Below are positions 27,895-64,000 of a stretch of DNA of 64,000 nucleotides, piece after piece. Below the pieces are notes generated by a model, which saw only the letters and a list, made by a program, of their open reading frames with translations, did no database searches and was not told the origin of the DNA. Numbering within the stretch: position 1 is the stretch's first letter; every line of letters starts with the position of its first letter. Position numbers and translations under genes: made by a program. Source of the DNA: a virus; IMG/VR virus record IMGVR_UViG_3300035666_000007, positions 1 to 64,000 of that record; one strand, written 5' to 3'.

Positions 27895-29319
27895 TCAGAA
27901 GTTAACCAGCCTCTCCGTCATGGCGTAGTTCTCTGCTGCAAACAGTATATTCGATGTACCAGTTGCTCCATGCCTATTCTTAAGAGCAATATATTCGTAG
28001 TCCATTGGATCGTGGTTTTTGTCATAATAATAAGGCCAATAGTTGCCAATGATAACGTCTGCGTCCTCCTCGATTCGCCCTGATTCTCTCAGATCCGACA
28101 TGACAGGGCGCTTGTCAATCCTTGTCTCTACGCCTCTGTTCAGCTGGCAAACAGCAACAATATCAACACCAGCTTTCTTGGAAACCGTTTTAAGCTTTCG
28201 CGTTGCATTACCAATCATTAGCGCCCTTGTGTCCTTGTTACCCGAGTCGGAGTCAAGGTCTAGTAGCGTCAGATAGTCAATGATCACTAGGGTTAAATTT
28301 TTGCTCTTTCGTTTTTCAGATTTGATTCGTGCTACCACTTGCGACGGCGTTACCTCATAGGCATCCACAAAAATTAAATTATTTACCACCTTATCAATCG
28401 GCATTGAAGCAATTCTCAGCCTTTGCTGTTCGTTCATCTCCTGTCTAATGATCGCCCCGTAGCTTAGTGGCTCACCGTGCGAGCGCAAGCACTTCAAGTA
28501 GTCCATGCAAGAAATCATTCGCTGCGAAACCTGCTCGCCCGACATTTCAAGCGAATAAAAAAGAACCTTGCAGTCATTCAGGACGGCATCAAGAGCAAGA
28601 TTCATCGCCCAGGTCGATTTTCCACTACCAGGGCGCCCACAAGTTACGATCAGTCTTCCATCAGAGCCGCTCTCATAATGGTTGAGCCCCCCACCAAGAA
28701 TTGCATTCAGCCCGGAAAGACGAGTTCTGATGACTCGATTTTCAAGTTTTGGGCCAAGCAGTATGTCCCTGGCCTTCAGGATCGGATGAACCTCTTTCTG
28801 GTGCGAATCAGCGCCTTCAATCAAGTCGGCGGCTGCGAGAACAAGCCCGAGGGCGCCCTGGGTATCCTTTTTGCTGCATTTGGACTTAATGATTTCAAGT
28901 GATTTTTTAAGGGAATCCTCAATGCGAGATCTTGAATGATGTAGATACCAGACCGGCAACAACTGATCTTGCCAAACCTGAATATCCCTTTCGATCGCAC
29001 ATGCAGCGATCTGATCGATAAAGTCCTGAGCTGTTGTCGCGTCGCACCCAGAGACATTCCTTAGGCGAGTGGAGACGGTAATGTCATTGGTGGGGGCCTG
29101 GTGAAAAGTCAAATACTCTTCTTTCAAGCATTCAAACAAAAACTTGTTAAAAGGGTCGGAGAAAATATCCTCCCGCGCAGGCAGTGCAATAAATTTATCA
29201 ATCCACTCATTGTCGCCAAAACTAAAGCATAGATGATTATAGGCAGCGGCTAAAAAGTGCTTTTCGATTTCAATTGAATTTTCCTGCAACTCAAAAGCTT
29301 CGATGTCAAGAACAGTCAT
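27895..29319 (-). CDS. dnaB: DnaB-like replicative helicase
   Basis: 'GRPGSGKS', 'FYSLEMS', 'IIDYLTL', 'CQLNRGVE...RPVMSDLRESGRIEEDAD', 'KNRHG'. Confidence 0.95.
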   Translation of the reverse strand: MTVLDIEAFELQENSIEIEKHFLAAAYNHLCFSFGDNEWIDKFIALPAREDIFSDPFNKFLFECLKEEYLTFHQAPTNDITVSTRLRNVSGCDATTAQDFIDQIAACAIERDIQVWQDQLLPVWYLHHSRSRIEDSLKKSLEIIKSKCSKKDTQGALGLVLAAADLIEGADSHQKEVHPILKARDILLGPKLENRVIRTRLSGLNAILGGGLNHYESGSDGRLIVTCGRPGSGKSTWAMNLALDAVLNDCKVLFYSLEMSGEQVSQRMISCMDYLKCLRSHGEPLSYGAIIRQEMNEQQRLRIASMPIDKVVNNLIFVDAYEVTPSQVVARIKSEKRKSKNLTLVIIDYLTLLDLDSDSGNKDTRALMIGNATRKLKTVSKKAGVDIVAVCQLNRGVETRIDKRPVMSDLRESGRIEEDADVIIGNYWPYYYDKNHDPMDYEYIALKNRHGATGTSNILFAAENYAMTERLVNF

Positions 29320-29401
29320 GGCAGCAGAGCGACGTAACGAACTGGGCTCAGGAAAGCGTATTGTGCGACTACCGCCACTGCAATACAGCAAAAACAATCT
29401 A

Positions 29402-30190
29402 TCACAGATTTAGCACAGCAGCTTGGTCATCGTCAAACTTACTTACAAGAGCGACGGCTGAGGGGCGCCCACCCCCCTGAAACTGCTGCCCCCAGGTCGG
29501 TGGCTTGTTTTTTTTGCCAAACTTCTTCCAGTTTGAATAGGTAATTGAAATCCATTTCTTTTCGCCAGCAGTGGATCTCTCAATCGCTTCTCGCAGCTGA
29601 GCCTTAACCTCATCGATTCCGCCATCTGGATCCCTCTCTATCCGAAGAAGGTTGTCAATCAGCCCATCAAACGCAACTTTTGCTTTTGACCCGCCTTTGT
29701 GGCTGTTGAAAAAGCTGCAAATTTGCGTATCAACAGCCTGAAGCTTGACTGGCACAATCGCATTGACGGCTGCGAACTTTTTGGGCGATCCAGTCGAGGC
29801 AGGGAGCCGTGGCGGAATAGGCGCCGGCTCGGAGCAGGGAGGAGGTGCCGTGGGAGCCGGGGCTTTCTCGACCTCCCAAAGCTTCAGCCTGTAGATATTT
29901 TCTGGGCGCCCGCCCTGGTTAAGTTTTACTGTTTTTTCGACAAGCCCTTTTTGTCGAAGCGAGGACACGCAGTCAGCGGCTGTCGCTCTTGAGATATTGG
30001 CGCAACTGCAAATAGCGTCATAGCACGGTTCGACAGAATCGCTACTTCCAGCACCGTCTGCAAAAAATTGCAAAGTGATCAAGACGCACAATTCGTTGTT
30101 ACTAAGCCAGCCACCTGGAGTCTCAAACTGCTTCCGAATAATCCAGTTCGGAATCGCCGTAAACGGATAACGGCTTTCAAAAACAGTCAT
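29402..30190 (-). CDS. Replication initiator-like HTH protein
   Basis: 'FTAIPNWI', HTH 'ISRATAADCVSSLRQKGLV...NIYRL'; directly upstream of dnaB. Confidence 0.7.
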   Translation of the reverse strand: MTVFESRYPFTAIPNWIIRKQFETPGGWLSNNELCVLITLQFFADGAGSSDSVEPCYDAICSCANISRATAADCVSSLRQKGLVEKTVKLNQGGRPENIYRLKLWEVEKAPAPTAPPPCSEPAPIPPRLPASTGSPKKFAAVNAIVPVKLQAVDTQICSFFNSHKGGSKAKVAFDGLIDNLLRIERDPDGGIDEVKAQLREAIERSTAGEKKWISITYSNWKKFGKKNKPPTWGQQFQGGGRPSAVALVSKFDDDQAAVLNL

Positions 30191-30375
30191 TTTCCACCTC
30201 GTGAATAAGCTTAAGTCCAAGCCTTGCGGCCTCAAGCTGCTGCTTTGAGAGTAAGTTGAATTTATTTTTATCGCCCTTACTGGCCGCTAAGATCTTGAGC
30301 ACCGCCAGGGAAGCTATTAGAGACGAAATCTCCTGCTCCTTCTCGGCCTGACCAGCGGTCATGATTGGGCGAATC

Positions 30376-32964: not shown

Positions 32965-33636
32965 TTAGGCAGAAGCGGCGATCACCGCTTCTGGATCTGG
33001 AAAGCCAAATAGCGGCAAGAAGAAGAATGGCTGATTGTTTGCACGCATAGTAGCAGCGCCTTGAATCTCATTGGAGGCCCTGGCTGCTGCCCAGGCTGCT
33101 TCCCCGGCTGCTTCCCCGGCTGCTTCCCCGGCTGCTTCCCAGGCTGCTTCCCCGGCTGCTGCCCCGGCTGCTTCCCCGGCTGCTTCCCCGGCTGCCGCCC
33201 TGGCTGCTGCCCAGGCTGCTTCCCCGGCTGCTTCCCCGGCTGCCCAGGCTGTCGCACTGGCTGCTGTCCAGGCTGCTGCCCAGGCCGCTGCCGTCATACG
33301 ATCAAGATGCCGCCAAAATGCAAGGACCAGATGCGCCTGATCTCCTAAAACTTGCTTAGGACTGCGAATTACGCTAGAAGGCGCACCTTCCTGTCTGTCG
33401 TTGACAATGCGCAACAAAACCGAATGAGCGACACTGATGCCAAACAGTTCGGCGACTTTCCTATCAGCGGCAGCCTGATCAATCTTGCGCAATTCATCGA
33501 CGGTCATCCCGCTTAAAAAATTCAGCGCCTGACCTTGAGCGCACATGCAAGAGCCGTCGTCACTGACGAGACTTCCTTTGAAAGGAATATTTCCAGGCCA
33601 GTAATCAAGAAGTTCATCAACTGTGGATGGTGTCAT
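32965..33636 (-). CDS. Ala-rich repeat protein (AAWA/AAGE)
   Basis: Globular N-terminus, Ala-rich tetrapeptide repeats, 'EIQGA...FFFLPLFGF' end. Confidence 0.7.
   Translation of the reverse strand: MTPSTVDELLDYWPGNIPFKGSLVSDDGSCMCAQGQALNFLSGMTVDELRKIDQAAADRKVAELFGISVAHSVLLRIVNDRQEGAPSSVIRSPKQVLGDQAHLVLAFWRHLDRMTAAAWAAAWTAASATAWAAGEAAGEAAWAAARAAAGEAAGEAAGAAAGEAAWEAAGEAAGEAAGEAAWAAARASNEIQGAATMRANNQPFFFLPLFGFPDPEAVIAASA
33077..33290. repeat. 12-bp coding tandem repeat
   Basis: GGCTGCT(T/G)CCC(C/A) units. Confidence 0.95.
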
Positions 33637-58322: not shown

Positions 58323-58536
58323 GTTTGTTGAGCAAGGTTGCCCCCTTCATCCCGTCCCGCACTTGCCGATCCACAGCAGGCCGCTGAGAGCCGCTGGAAG
58401 GCCTTTGCGGATGTCGATGCCCCTAGGAGACGCTGAAGCGTCGAGAGGCGTCTAGATGAGGCGTTTAGCGCTGTCTCCGTTGGTTTGAGATTGAGCCTTG
58501 ATCGGTTAGCGTGCGAGCGTTCGAGATTCGCAACGG

Positions 58537-59007
58537 ATGCGCAGACAGAGCACGTGCGAGGTGATGACGGTTGCGGAAGTGCATCGAAGATTGCGTGCAG
58601 TCAAACGCAGTCTTGCAAACAAAAGCCAGGTCTTGTATTATCAATCTCTTAATTTAGATTGTCTAAAACTTGACCTTACAGAGGTAGAGAGTTTCTACAC
58701 TTGCCCGATCAGTTTTGACAAAAAGCAGTTTCTAGCATATATCATTAACAAACAGTCTTTGTTCAATCAAGACAACTTTATTCATGCAGATATTCTTGAT
58801 TACGTCTCCAATCGCAAAAAAACAATTTGCAAAAGCTTTGCAGTAACAGCAATGCTTTTTACCAAGTACAGAGATTTTAGCGAAGTTCACAAACACGTTA
58901 TTGTTTGCATTGGCAGCATCTATCACGCCCCCCGACTCTTTTATAAGGATATGGCTAGCGGTCGAATTGTCTACGAGAAGTGCAGCGAGTATATAGACTT
59001 ACTGTAA
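58537..59007 (+). CDS. Hypothetical protein
   Basis: 156-aa AT-rich ORF. Confidence 0.5.
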   Translation: MRRQSTCEVMTVAEVHRRLRAVKRSLANKSQVLYYQSLNLDCLKLDLTEVESFYTCPISFDKKQFLAYIINKQSLFNQDNFIHADILDYVSNRKKTICKSFAVTAMLFTKYRDFSEVHKHVIVCIGSIYHAPRLFYKDMASGRIVYEKCSEYIDLL

Positions 59008-59080
59008 TGTAATTTTGAAAAATTCATTTCGCCCCATTCTCTTCTTTCTTCTTTCTTTTTCTTCTTTTTTCTTTATAGTC

Positions 59081-59761
59081 ATGACTGATTACAACTTTGA
59101 AATTCAAGACAGTAGTTTTGATCTTAATGATGAACAACTTGATTCACTTAATTGTGAAGAACTTAATGTTTTAGAACAAGACACGAATCTTACCTCTCTC
59201 GCGCCCGTTGCTGACAGCAAGCAATCTAATAGCTCTACAGTAATGGATGATACGGTTAACCAATCGTGGCAGTTCAGATCGAAATTAGCTACCAATGAAA
59301 CAGAAAAAGAATACCTTATCTTTAAGTTTTGGTTAGATGCAGGATCGGGACGATCAAAGCAGTACGTATCAAAAGTCTATAATTTAACAGAAAACTCTAT
59401 CTTCAAGGTAGCAAATAAGAATAACTGGGACTTGAGAGCTACGGATTACGACTGTTTTCAGTTGCAGTTAATGACCGCTGCAGAGAACAGCCGTCGTGCT
59501 CAGTTGCATAAACAGAAGCTAGAAGAGTACCGTCAACAACAGGAGTTCATTGGGCGAAGCCTGTCATCCGATGCAGCAAAGTTAGCAGCAATTGTTAGCA
59601 ATACGTTGGATCAGTTTATGTTAAATGATCGGTTGGTGGATATTCGTGATTTACCAGCTGTTTTGAATGCTGCTAACAAAGCAGCAGAGGTTGGTCGTAA
59701 CTTGCAAAGTTCTGCATTAGGCGTTGATCAGTTGCTGACTGCTCTGGAAGAATGCGAGTGA
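59081..59761 (+). CDS. Putative terminase small subunit
   Basis: 'W...NETEKEYLIFKFWLDAGSGRS...V...NNWDLRATDYD' HTH followed by coiled coil resembles a TerS family. Confidence 0.55.
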   Translation: MTDYNFEIQDSSFDLNDEQLDSLNCEELNVLEQDTNLTSLAPVADSKQSNSSTVMDDTVNQSWQFRSKLATNETEKEYLIFKFWLDAGSGRSKQYVSKVYNLTENSIFKVANKNNWDLRATDYDCFQLQLMTAAENSRRAQLHKQKLEEYRQQQEFIGRSLSSDAAKLAAIVSNTLDQFMLNDRLVDIRDLPAVLNAANKAAEVGRNLQSSALGVDQLLTALEECE

Positions 59762-59997
59762 CCGCTGCAATGCAATCAATCATGTGCGTGCGGTTGGCCA
59801 ACCGTATGCATGGGTTGATGTTGTGCTTGCGGTTGAGGACCACCATCGCGGCGGTTGATCGGGCTGTTGGTGTTAGACAATGAGAAGCATAGAGAACGTC
59901 GATTCAGCCCTGTCCACGCCTGGGTTTCTTGATCGGTCAGTCAAGGTGACGTGGACTTAGACGGTGTAGACTCAGCTCCACCACTGGGTCGCCAAAA

Positions 59998-60411
59998 ATG
60001 CCCCCTGTCCCGCCCTCCGCTGCAGATGCCGATGCTGTTGCGGTTGCAAAAACAGATGGCCATTCCGGTTTTTGCATGTTTCATCCGCTGGAAGCAAGGA
60101 AATACTTTGCGCAAATCAAGCGGCGTGAATTGATGCCTCGTGACTTTGCGGTGTTGTTTGCGGTTTTGTCGTTGTGCGATACGAAGACCGGACGGGTTCG
60201 ATTCATCATTCAAGAGCTTGGCGAAGAGTTGGGCATGCACCCCACCGTGGTTAGTAGCTCGATACGGCGACTCAAAAAGCATTTACTGATTGCCAATTGC
60301 GTGGATCCCGATGGGGACCGCTATTACTTAATCAATCCGTATTTGTTGTCGGTTGGGCGTCGGCAGCGTTGGGGATTGTTGCTGAAGCGGTTTGAGCTGG
60401 CGCTGGAATAG
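59998..60411 (+). CDS. Winged-HTH protein, RepL-like
   Basis: 'QELGEELGMHPTVVSSSIRRLKK..LI...YYLINPYLLSVG'. Confidence 0.65.
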   Translation: MPPVPPSAADADAVAVAKTDGHSGFCMFHPLEARKYFAQIKRRELMPRDFAVLFAVLSLCDTKTGRVRFIIQELGEELGMHPTVVSSSIRRLKKHLLIANCVDPDGDRYYLINPYLLSVGRRQRWGLLLKRFELALE

Positions 60412-60623
60412 CCATTCAGGTTGCCTTCATGTTTTCGCATTCACGAAAGCCATTCAGGTTGCATTCAAATGCCCCATTCACGATTTGCATTCATGAAAGC
60501 CATTCACGATGGCCATTCATGCTGCATTCACGATTTGCATTCACGATTTGCATTCACGATTTGCATTCACGAAAGCCATTCACGAAAGCCATTCACGATA
60601 TGGATTCACGAAAGCCAGTCACG
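60410..60623 (+). repeat. Tandem array, ~17 copies, mostly 13-bp period, core CATTCACGA
   Basis: Cores at 60413, 60425, 60438, 60451, 60462, 60475, 60488, 60501, 60514, 60525, 60538, 60551, 60564, 60577, 60590, 60603, 60616. Confidence 0.95.
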
Positions 60624-60694
60624 GATGCGGATGGAAACCGGGCCCGGCGGAGGACTCAGGCTTTGGAGCCGTTGTCGATCGCCCACCCGGCTTG

Positions 60695-61096
60695 ATAGTT
60701 ACAGATAGCGATTCCAGACAAATAGTTACAGATAGCGATTGTCACCTGATAGTTACAGATAGCGATTGTCACCTGATAGTTACAGATAGCAATTGTTGAT
60801 AAATAGTTACAGATAGCGATTGCTATTTAATAGTTACAGATAGCAATTGTTGCATATCAGATAGCAATTGCCAGTAAATAGTTACAGATAGCGATTGTTG
60901 GCTAATAGTTACAGATAGTAATTGTTGCTTGATAGTTACAGATAGCGATTGTTATGTGTTAGACAGCAATGACTGATCAATAGTTACAGATAGTGATTGC
61001 TAGTAAATAGTTATAGATAGTGATTGTTATTTGATAGTTACAGATAGCGATTGCTATTTGATAATAATAAATAGCGATTACTGGTAAATAGTTATC
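60695..61096 (+). repeat. Array of 19-bp direct repeats ATAGTTACAGATAG(C/T)(G/A)ATT with 8-bp variable spacers (27-bp period)
   Basis: Copies at 60695, 60722, 60749, 60776, 60803, 60830, 60878, 60905, 60932, 60980, 61007, 61034; partial or degenerate at 60858, 60961, 61061, 61088. Confidence 0.95.
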
Positions 61097-61303
61097 ACAA
61101 GCCCCGCGTTGGTGTTATCGAACACCAGCACAGTTACCGATACAATTGCCAGTACAGTTGCTAATACAGTTACCGATACAGAGGCGGAAACAGTCCGGCT
61201 GTGGTGTCACCCCTTGTTGACACCAATGGTGCGGATCGGTCCTATCCGTGGTAGGATCGGCAAAGCCGGAGGACCCCCTTTCCTCCCTCCGGCCCTTGGA
61301 CCC

Positions 61304-61933
61304 ATGACCCGCACCACCAGCACCACCACCAGCACCACGGAGCCCGCGCCCTCCGCCCTCATGGCGGAGTTGCTCGCCGCGTTCCATCAAGTCGCCGCCC
61401 AAGGCCCCAGCAAGCGCAGCAGCGCCGCCGCCGCTCCTGTCGATCCTTGGGAGGGTGTGACGCTCACCCTTGAGCAGGAGCGCGCCTTAATCAAGCTGGG
61501 TTGGCATCAGCAAGGCTGGACAGTCCGGGAGAAAGCCAGCCGCCAGGCCTTGCCGCCCCACCTAGCCAAAGCTGGCCCCCAACAGCCCGACGCCCGCAAG
61601 GTGGCGGAAGGCCTGGTAGACGTCCAGGGATTGGCCAACTGGAGCGCCTTAGGCATGATCTGCGCCCGCCTGGCTGCCTACGGCAAACTGCACGTTGGGG
61701 CCGTGGCGCAGGTCTTGGTGGCCACTGGAGCAGCCGGAGATTGGTCCGCCACGCCTGGCAAGTTTGCCTCAAAATTGGGATCCGTGTTGCGGGTGAAGAT
61801 CACGCGAACGGGAGATGGCTACTACGAAGCCACCCCAAACGGCCATCAGCCCATGCACGACGTGCTAGCCCGTATGGCCGATGGCATCCTCAAACCAGCC
61901 CAGCCCGCCAAGCCCGCCAAGCCAGCCGACTGA
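61304..61933 (+). CDS. GC-rich hypothetical protein
   Basis: ATG after extended -10 (TGGTAGGAT) and stem-loop 61265-61293. Confidence 0.6.
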   Translation: MTRTTSTTTSTTEPAPSALMAELLAAFHQVAAQGPSKRSSAAAAPVDPWEGVTLTLEQERALIKLGWHQQGWTVREKASRQALPPHLAKAGPQQPDARKVAEGLVDVQGLANWSALGMICARLAAYGKLHVGAVAQVLVATGAAGDWSATPGKFASKLGSVLRVKITRTGDGYYEATPNGHQPMHDVLARMADGILKPAQPAKPAKPAD

Positions 61934-62841: not shown

Positions 62842-64000
62842 ATGGCCATGAAGTCCCCAATTGATTCACGCTTTCGTGTTGAAACTCTTAACGCAACTCT
62901 CAATCCGCAAACAACTGTTTGGTGCGCAATGCACCAAGACTACTCTGAGGAATTTGTTTTTGACGAAACTGCTCCAAGCGAGAAGCGTGCTGGCGAAATC
63001 ATCGTCAAGCGGTTGCTTTCTGGGGAGAAGGGGCATTACGGCTGCTATTCAGCTGACACTGAAGTTCTGACGGCAAATGGTTGGGTTAAGTGGCCAAATG
63101 TTGAGCCTTCAATGGCCTTGGCCGCTGTTGACATCGAAACAGGTGCAATCCGCTTCGAGCATCCGACTGGACTGCAACGCGTGCCATTTGCAGACGGGGA
63201 CAAGCTCTATTGCTTGCAGTCGCAAAAACTTGACATGGCCGTGACACAAGACCATCGCATGGCTGTTTCACACCATCACAAGAGCAATGCTTGGAGCAAT
63301 TGGCATTTCACAACTGCAGCAGAAGTTGCAGGCAGAACCGTTCGCTATAGACTCGCCGGAGAATTGCAAGAGCGCAAAATCCCCGACGACTGCCCTAGCG
63401 GCGTTGATTTGGTGCAGTTGTTCAAAATCGCTGGATTTTTCTTTGGTTATGGCTGCCGCAGCAAGAACCAAGGACCGGGTTGCTTGCGCCTTGGGCTGCG
63501 ACAAGTACGCAAAATTGCCTATCGATACAGCTATGGTTTTGATATTGAGAGCAAGCAAAGTGATCGACTTACGCTGAAAAACAGCAAGGTTGCTGAATGG
63601 GTGCATCGCCACTTTGCGACAGAGAATGGCAAGGCGATCCCATCATTTGTAATGCACTTGCCAGTTGCCTTGTTTGAAGCGTTTGCAGATGGGCTCAGGA
63701 ACAGTGATGGAACGCCCAAAGGAGCCACTTGGGCCCTCGACTCCACCGAGAAAGCCTCTCTCGATATACTGCAGGCTGCTTTTCATCTCAATGGGCAAGC
63801 GGCATCTCTGAGTCTCAATAACCCAAATGAAGACGAAGAACGCGAAAACCACACGCCAAGCTGGAGAATTCATATTTCATGTCACGAACCATTCGCACTT
63901 GCTGAAGTTGGGCAAAAAGGAGGAACCCGAGGAAGCGAACAACTGCTTCCGTATCAAGGAGATGTCTATTGCGCCACCGTGTCAACAGGTGCGCTCCTGG
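62842..64000 (+). CDS. thyX: Flavin-dependent thymidylate synthase ThyX, intein-containing, truncated by window end
   Basis: Open frame 'IDSRFRVETLNATLNPQ...AMHQDYSE...AGEIIVKRLLSGEKGHYG' matches the cyanobacterial ThyX N-terminus. Confidence 0.9.
   Translation, partial: MAMKSPIDSRFRVETLNATLNPQTTVWCAMHQDYSEEFVFDETAPSEKRAGEIIVKRLLSGEKGHYGCYSADTEVLTANGWVKWPNVEPSMALAAVDIETGAIRFEHPTGLQRVPFADGDKLYCLQSQKLDMAVTQDHRMAVSHHHKSNAWSNWHFTTAAEVAGRTVRYRLAGELQERKIPDDCPSGVDLVQLFKIAGFFFGYGCRSKNQGPGCLRLGLRQVRKIAYRYSYGFDIESKQSDRLTLKNSKVAEWVHRHFATENGKAIPSFVMHLPVALFEAFADGLRNSDGTPKGATWALDSTEKASLDILQAAFHLNGQAASLSLNNPNEDEERENHTPSWRIHISCHEPFALAEVGQKGGTRGSEQLLPYQGDVYCATVSTGALL
63043..64000 (+). mobile_element. Intein with LAGLIDADG homing endonuclease domain in thyX
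   Basis: Block A 'CYSADTEVLTANGW', B 'VTQDHRM', C 'IAGFFFGYG', E 'FADGLRNSDG', H 'LDILQ', F 'DVYCATVSTGALL'. Confidence 0.92.

Follow-up and report, generated by a model that had tools for sequence, protein, structure and literature searches.

Plasmid iterons recur at periods of 11 or 22 bp, and lambdoid phages swap their initiator and origin together as modules. TubR has 12-bp tubC repeats, and phage T7 carries arrays of short repeats beside its terminal repeat. Replication driven by RepL of phage P1 depends on an AT-rich region (PMC9948254), and in phage SPP1 the direct-repeat sets boxA, boxB, and boxC belong to a site that extends over the promoters and the beginning of the gene for the small terminase (PMC4737164). 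Here we analyze a locus of an uncultured freshwater phage with a 98-kb genome (IMG/VR virus record IMGVR_UViG_3300035666_000007, 98,034 bp, rated complete by CheckV), of which bases 1-64000 are referred to as the window. At this locus, the gene for a small winged helix-turn-helix (wHTH) protein is followed by two different arrays of tandem direct repeats. The element is real and is conserved across a phage lineage; it joins two arrays with a RepL-like protein cassette and is a variant of known iteron or packaging-site (pac) architectures. The reading that we favor, with a probability of roughly 0.45, is that the region is an iteron-type phage replication origin with an adjoining unwinding zone.

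The locus comprises the following features, in coordinates of the window:

59081..59761, + strand: TerS-like gene, 226 aa, with a match to phrog_6299
59783..59812, + strand: terminator-like hairpin, from a consensus scan (pattern match only)
59998..60411, + strand: wHTH gene, 137 aa, stop codon at 60409-60411
60413..60625, + strand: array 1
60626..60691, no strand: GC-rich unique spacer
60692..61103, + strand: array 2
61130..61181, + strand: array 3
61304..61933, + strand: orfD, 209 aa, 64% identical to L005:8664-9368 of the closest relative

An earlier, sequence-only reading of this stretch had described two periodic arrays, a GC-rich spacer with a palindrome, and the decay of the second array into further copies, and all of these lie where it placed them. 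Array 1 consists of ~17 CATTCA(CGA) units, each followed by a variable 4-mer and mostly at a 13-bp period, all on the + strand (14 exact CATTCA and three degenerate units, with nine being exact CATTCACGA); its first unit begins 1 nt past the wHTH stop codon. Array 2 consists of ~16 units of ATAGTTACAGATAGCGATTG, with a variable 7-nt spacer after each, at a 27-bp period (13 full units, two truncated ones with 21-bp steps, and one partial unit), and its 18-mer has 12 matches at three or fewer mismatches, as compared to 0.05 expected in shuffles. Array 3 is made up of three ACAGTTAC-type 15-mers, with ACAGTTACCGATACA at 61130 and 61166 and a variant at 61154; the closest relative, L005, has (ACAGTT)x6.7 at this position. 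Across the 98 kb, all nine copies of CATTCACGA and all 12 copies of AGATAGYRATTG fall within 60400-61200 on one strand, and a TRF search of the 98,034-bp record found no non-coding tandem array besides those at this locus. The pairing of a constant core with a variable spacer favors selection on binding sites over plain slippage. We also considered whether the arrays could be coding or CRISPR-like. No ORF of at least 40 aa spans 60800-61100 on either strand, and the coding interpretation was rejected because a 13-bp period cannot hold a reading frame; the CRISPR-like one was rejected because the spacers are just 4 and 7 nt. A search against Rfam gave nothing above noise.

The duplex of array 2 is unusually unstable, at ~-1.11 to -1.17 kcal/mol per bp relative to a genome mean of -1.44. 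The least stable 100-bp window of the 98 kb is array 2, the least stable 300-bp stretch also lies inside it, and in the loci of five of six relatives the corresponding zone ranks lowest in stability among the 300-bp windows. A contig from another lake sample (run X3) is without 54 bp that correspond to exactly two array 2 units (60877-60932), which, at a depth of 3, weakly suggests that the copy number of array 2 may vary in natural populations.

The spacer between arrays 1 and 2 (66 bp, GC-rich, a single occurrence) carries the palindrome CCGGGCCCGG at 60638-60647, which the sequence-only reading had placed at the center of the element. This palindrome does not hold up as a key feature: it is not found in L005, whose spacer is AT-rich, and it is altered by a C>T change at 60645 in a near-identical strain. 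The fold of the spacer has a z-score of -0.38, and no conserved hairpin or common fold was detected among the relatives. Neither the palindrome nor the spacer is a conserved element.

About 20 related metagenomic loci were gathered through protein searches with TerS and wHTH and through a blind IMG/VR scan for CATTCA occurring three times at 13-bp intervals. They belong to one lineage, in which terS is followed by wHTH, a CATTCA cluster, an AT-rich zone of WGTTA repeats, an orfD-like gene, terL, and portal; the region, whose absence from close relatives the sequence-only reading had listed among the findings that would count against it, is conserved in layout. In the blind scan, 16 of the 119 returned loci encode a wHTH family member next to the array (hmmsearch with a 40-sequence profile). 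The CATTCA array begins 0-5 nt past the wHTH stop in most loci, and a CATTCA cluster follows the gene in all loci examined except L015, whose contig ends 359 nt past it. In the relatives, the hexamer is always on the coding strand, and its 5-24 copies represent most of each locus's occurrences. The units of the second zone are ATAGTTACAGATAGCGATTG at 27 bp in the window and in L005, TATTTGTTA-type in most loci, GTTATAGTT (x24) in L064, and AGACAAAAG (x13) in L091; a strand-specific WGTTA core is present in the second zone of most loci, with 8-40 copies as opposed to <1.6 expected and few on the other strand. Some relatives carry an extra small ORF, absent from the window, between wHTH and the CATTCA cluster (L005:7426-7725, ~99 aa; L006:6393-6560; L011:1137-1400; L015:2154-2460).

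A comparison with L005, in which TerL is 89%, TerS 72%, and orfD 64% identical, divides the locus into two parts. DNA homology spans 58380-59753 and restarts exactly at 60692, the start of array 2, while the intervening segment (59754-60691; wHTH gene, array 1, and spacer) has no DNA match in L005, and the two wHTH proteins are 39% identical. The same segment matches a more distant clade, both in its wHTH genes (85-92% over 60322-60374) and in their arrays. The gap in homology to L005 and the match to the distant clade together indicate that the wHTH gene and the CATTCA array constitute one exchangeable cassette, and that array 2 belongs to the flanking DNA. Because the cassette moves independently of terS and array 2, the two arrays probably serve different proteins, which supports the earlier suggestion of a different binding protein for each array of a compound cis site. 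The recognition helix of the wHTH protein (residues 82-94, with S88, R91, and L92 invariant) and the CATTCA hexamer are both kept while the remainder of the protein drops to 34-39% identity (alignment, BLASTP). We consider this good, if indirect, evidence for binding of CATTCA by the wHTH protein and of array 2 by a different protein.

The AF2 model of the wHTH protein (pLDDT 83.5) is a winged helix of the MarR/ArsR/DnaD-N type that also has a strand and a helix at the N terminus and one helix at the C terminus. Its nearest clusters in the ESM Atlas, by features as well as by structure, are RepL/HTH_36 'plasmid replication' proteins of 135-165 aa, with feature scores of 0.96-0.97 and TM values of 0.67-0.75 over almost the full length of the wHTH protein. 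Among 40 members of the family, RepL (Pfam PF05732; gathering threshold of 20.3 bits) and HTH_Crp_2 are the domains most often matched, in 19 of the 40 each and below threshold; the best subthreshold RepL match has an E-value of 4.9e-5, and one distant member, P0134, exceeds the gathering score with 41.8 bits. The designation RepL-like, made in the sequence-only reading, can thus be kept as a likeness supported by predicted structure (Atlas) and subthreshold Pfam matches, and has to be given up as membership in RepL. The gene so designated is that of the wHTH protein; the large ORF at 62842 encodes ThyX with an insertion and not a Rep protein. The wHTH family contains 272 representative clusters, and the ten that were looked up are all metagenomic and without functional names. 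Single-protein scans of IMG/VR with P0010 and P0043 gave no matches. A complex prediction for TerS(60-226) with wHTH(20-137) scored 0.00, which is no verdict for or against an interaction.

From the observed anatomy, conservation, cassette exchange, duplex instability, and RepL likeness, we infer binding, melting, and replication functions as follows. The wHTH protein, whose gene ends 1 nt before array 1, would bind the ~17 CATTCA(CGA) sites head-to-tail, and the nucleoprotein filament formed in this way would assist the opening of the neighboring array 2, whose strand-specific WGTTA repeats would be held by a second protein; the phage helicase would then be loaded. Array 2 could be bound by an O-like initiator or, in single-stranded form, by the wHTH protein itself. 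The genome encodes both an initiator of this kind and a helicase:

29405..30235, - strand: O-like replication initiator gene, matching phrog_270 (E 1.1e-7) and phrog_8540 (E 6.7e-6)
27898-29397, - strand: DnaB-type helicase gene, matching DnaB_C (E 9e-53)

The O-like initiator is laid out as a wHTH, a Pro-rich linker, and a C-terminal domain, and its gene is directly upstream of that for the helicase. No iterons were found in or near the initiator gene, and with no repeats near initiator or helicase, the arrays at 60.4-61.2 kb are the genome's sole iteron-like DNA; the O-like initiator may be considered a candidate for the second partner of the arrays. It is not related to the wHTH family by hhalign.

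The origin reading is favored by an initiator-like gene that abuts its own repeats and by the exchange of protein and site as a module. As in iteron origins, tandem direct repeats, here ~17 same-strand putative sites, stand beside the gene for an initiator-like protein, and the duplex stability of array 2 corresponds to that of an AT-rich unwinding element. Several observations weigh against this assignment. The site is ~30 kb from the replication genes and within the terS-terL interval, and a canonical initiator is already encoded, so that a second one would be redundant. The repeats are not in phase with the helix, as they recur every 13 or 27 bp in the window and CATTCA is spaced by 4 to 18 bp among the relatives, and a 400-bp unwinding zone of 16 units far exceeds, to our knowledge, the length of known unwinding elements. 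GC skew, which the sequence-only reading had put forward as a check, does not point to the arrays: its cumulative minimum is at 41-44 kb and not at 60.5 kb, although skew in this genome follows, and is confounded by, the direction of transcription. The wHTH protein of the window has no RepL match in Pfam, only weak matches to MarR_2 and Crp, and its matches in the PDB (Foldseek, VIA) are generic, to the winged-helix domains of SarX, DnaD-N, MarR, and Cdc6, all with Z <8. No relatives of the protein were found in 185,579 prokaryote genomes, and tblastn against plasmids (PLSDB) gave chance-level matches only.

The most serious rival to an origin is a headful pac site, which we regard as possible, though on balance unlikely. 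TerS would sit on the WGTTA repeats of array 2, with the wHTH protein on array 1 as an accessory specificity factor, and TerL would make its first cut in or near the spacer and package towards terL, the direction being set by the uniform orientation of the units. The terS gene is real, as the sequence-only reading had proposed: its product matches phrog_6299, 'terminase small subunit', with an E-value of 6.7e-11, has an acidic N-terminus and an HTH at about residues 88-120, and is 46-74% identical to its counterparts in the relatives, in which the gene is always just upstream of wHTH. The arrays are between terS and terL in every relative and, in this genome, next to terS, 650 bp downstream of its stop and 3.5 kb upstream of terL. 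Array 2 follows terS, rather than the wHTH gene, in its inheritance, and the recognition helix of the TerS HTH differs between clades with different array 2 units; however, this agreement matches the overall phylogeny (TerL is 89% identical to that of L005 and 55% to the rest) and is therefore not independent evidence. The pac of SPP1 likewise has three direct-repeat sets around its cleavage site (PMC4737164), but the region proposed to be cut here is unconserved in sequence or fold, and the gene that abuts the array is RepL-like rather than terS. Distant homologs of the wHTH protein are encoded near terL in T7-like cyanophages, immediately upstream of it in S-SRP02 and ~1.1 kb (two genes) upstream in AP013548, but both are without arrays. 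We know of no pac site with ~15 sites per array or with its genome's least stable DNA, which also counts against packaging. The two functions might also be combined, with the RepL-like protein firing an origin at CATTCA and TerS starting packaging at WGTTA. Such a hub, which overlaps with both the origin and the pac interpretations and which we find improbable, would place adjacent sites at the early-late junction and physically couple replication, late transcription, and the initiation of packaging, a coupling for which we hold out equally little expectation.

A regulatory or architectural role in the late operon, in which the MarR-like wHTH protein would polymerize on array 1 and a second factor would occupy array 2, is in our judgment a long shot. 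Being just upstream of a late promoter, the arrays would act as a switch, roadblock, or titration timer between early and late expression. They do lie between the AT-rich upstream region, which ends in terS and the terminator-like hairpin, and orfD, the first gene of the structural module; a TATAAAATA-type -10 element is kept in relatives ~60-100 nt before the gene at the orfD position; matches to MarR_2 and Crp-type HTH domains are as good as those to RepL; and the S-SRP02 homolog is encoded at a divergent promoter region, opposite an operon that ends with MarR and integrase genes. However, array 1 is ~700 bp from the putative late promoter, the S-SRP02 homolog has no adjacent array, and, the array motifs being found nowhere else in the genome, the wHTH protein would have only one locus to regulate; the tandem sites, at more than 30, also far exceed the operators known to us. 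A partition centromere of the TubR-tubC or ParR-parC type, serving a plasmid-like prophage state, would account for the pairing of 13-bp direct repeats with a gene for a small wHTH protein, an arrangement that resembles TubR-tubC, but the complete record contains no integrase and no gene for ParA, ParM, TubZ, or ParB (PF01656, PF06406, PF00091, PF02195), and there is no relative in the 185,579 prokaryote genomes or the PLSDB plasmids. Without a motor gene a centromere role is unlikely, and we consider it very remote. Hardly more credible is a physical genome end of the T7 type, in which the arrays would flank a terminal repeat. The T7 analogy was drawn in the sequence-only reading, and the arrays beside the terminal repeat of that phage are its one support. 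It fails here, as the sole end repeat is a 127-bp overlap at 1/98034, not between the arrays; 127 bp is a common largest k-mer setting of short-read assemblers, so this overlap shows circular closure of the assembly and no more. In addition, the unique segment between the arrays (66 bp) occurs once and is unconserved, and the nearest cultured relatives by TerL are only ~35% identical.

The wider setting of the locus is a genome with minus-strand genes at ~3-44 kb and plus-strand genes from 44 kb on. The locus is at the end of an AT-richer upstream region (44-47% GC), which is closed by the TerS-like gene and after which the structural module starts. Directly after the terS stop, the hairpin at 59783-59812 has a stem of 13 pairs and, behind it, a tail that is T-rich in part, GGTTGATGTT, and may be the end of the early transcription unit. 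A 35-nt polypyrimidine tract, (TCTTCTT)n, at 59040-59074 immediately precedes the terS start codon; an (ATTT)n run occupies this place in relatives (L005:5942-5988). Past the arrays, orfD is the first gene and heads a same-strand run to thyX, terL, and portal:

62842-64572 (L002:1842-3572), + strand: ThyX gene with insertion, 576 aa, with a split Thy1 domain
64616-66016, + strand: TerL gene
66141-67847, + strand: portal gene, with scaffold and adaptor genes next

The product of orfD has no Pfam, PHROG, or PDB match, and its Atlas model is poor. In the distant clade, a conserved GTATAAAATAAACTGATCA element is found ~60-100 nt ahead of the gene at the orfD position (L006:7270-7300, L013:1640-1665, L016:1400-1425, L017:1295-1320); it is a candidate late promoter, with a likeness to an extended -10 box or to a TATAAATA box of the T4 late type. 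By eye, a 19-mer in the orfD leader, ACCAATGGTGCGGATCGGT (61221-61240), is reverse-complemented in L005:8527-8548 as ACCGATCCGCACCAATGGT, a difference that reads as a small inversion between close relatives. In ThyX, the Thy1 domain is matched by residues 54-170 and 399-558, while the middle part has weak matches to unrelated intein-bearing PHROGs (RNR, PhoH); the homolog in L005 has 216 aa and is without the insertion, which is likely an intein or homing endonuclease. A coding 12-bp repeat, GCCCCGGCTGCT (x18), is found at 33077-33292, inside a 223-aa ORF (32965-33636, - strand) that belongs to no family. The cultured phages nearest by TerL, at ~35% identity, are the cyanophages KBS-S-2A, S-H1, and MED4-184 and enterobacterial phages (siphoviruses), and a DNA search of phage and plasmid collections with the stretch returned no match.

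With this element, a lineage of uncultured freshwater phages, some of whose nearest cultured TerL relatives (~35%) are cyanophages, gains a defined cis element and a proposed cognate protein, with core motifs (CATTCA and WGTTA) and cassette boundaries (59754-60691), and the motifs make the lineage easily found in metagenomes. If it is an origin, the locus would be unusual in having a long unwinding zone made of regular repeats, and its RepL-like protein and repeats would be a candidate minimal replicon for cyanobacterial vectors; if it is a pac site, it would represent a two-protein recognition system.

Among the described systems, TubR-tubC and ParR-parC likewise place a small DNA-binding protein beside many short direct repeats, with polymerization as the proposed mode of action, whereas at the locus described here a cognate NTPase gene is missing and nothing points to maintenance as a plasmid or prophage. 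It shares more of its setting with the pac sites of SPP1 and SF6 (pacL-pacC-pacR; PMC4737164), in being non-coding, next to terS, and composed of three direct-repeat sets around a unique segment; in contrast to those, it has at least 15 copies per array over 0.8 kb, it is downstream of terS, and a separate wHTH gene stands between terS and the arrays. Iteron origins (lambda O/ori, iteron plasmids, and P1 RepL/oriL with AT2; PMC9948254) have three to seven helix-phased sites, as opposed to ~17 at 13 bp with variable spacing, and in this locus the AT-rich DNA also consists of regular repeats, 16 units with a 27-bp period and a separate conserved core. The iterons of lambda are in or near the O gene, while the O-like gene of this phage is without them; the site is between terS and terL, and the wHTH protein does not pass the RepL model. 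What this locus has in common with the iteron origins is an initiator-like gene that abuts same-strand direct repeats, the genome's most easily melted DNA beside these repeats, and a module of protein and site that is exchanged as a unit.

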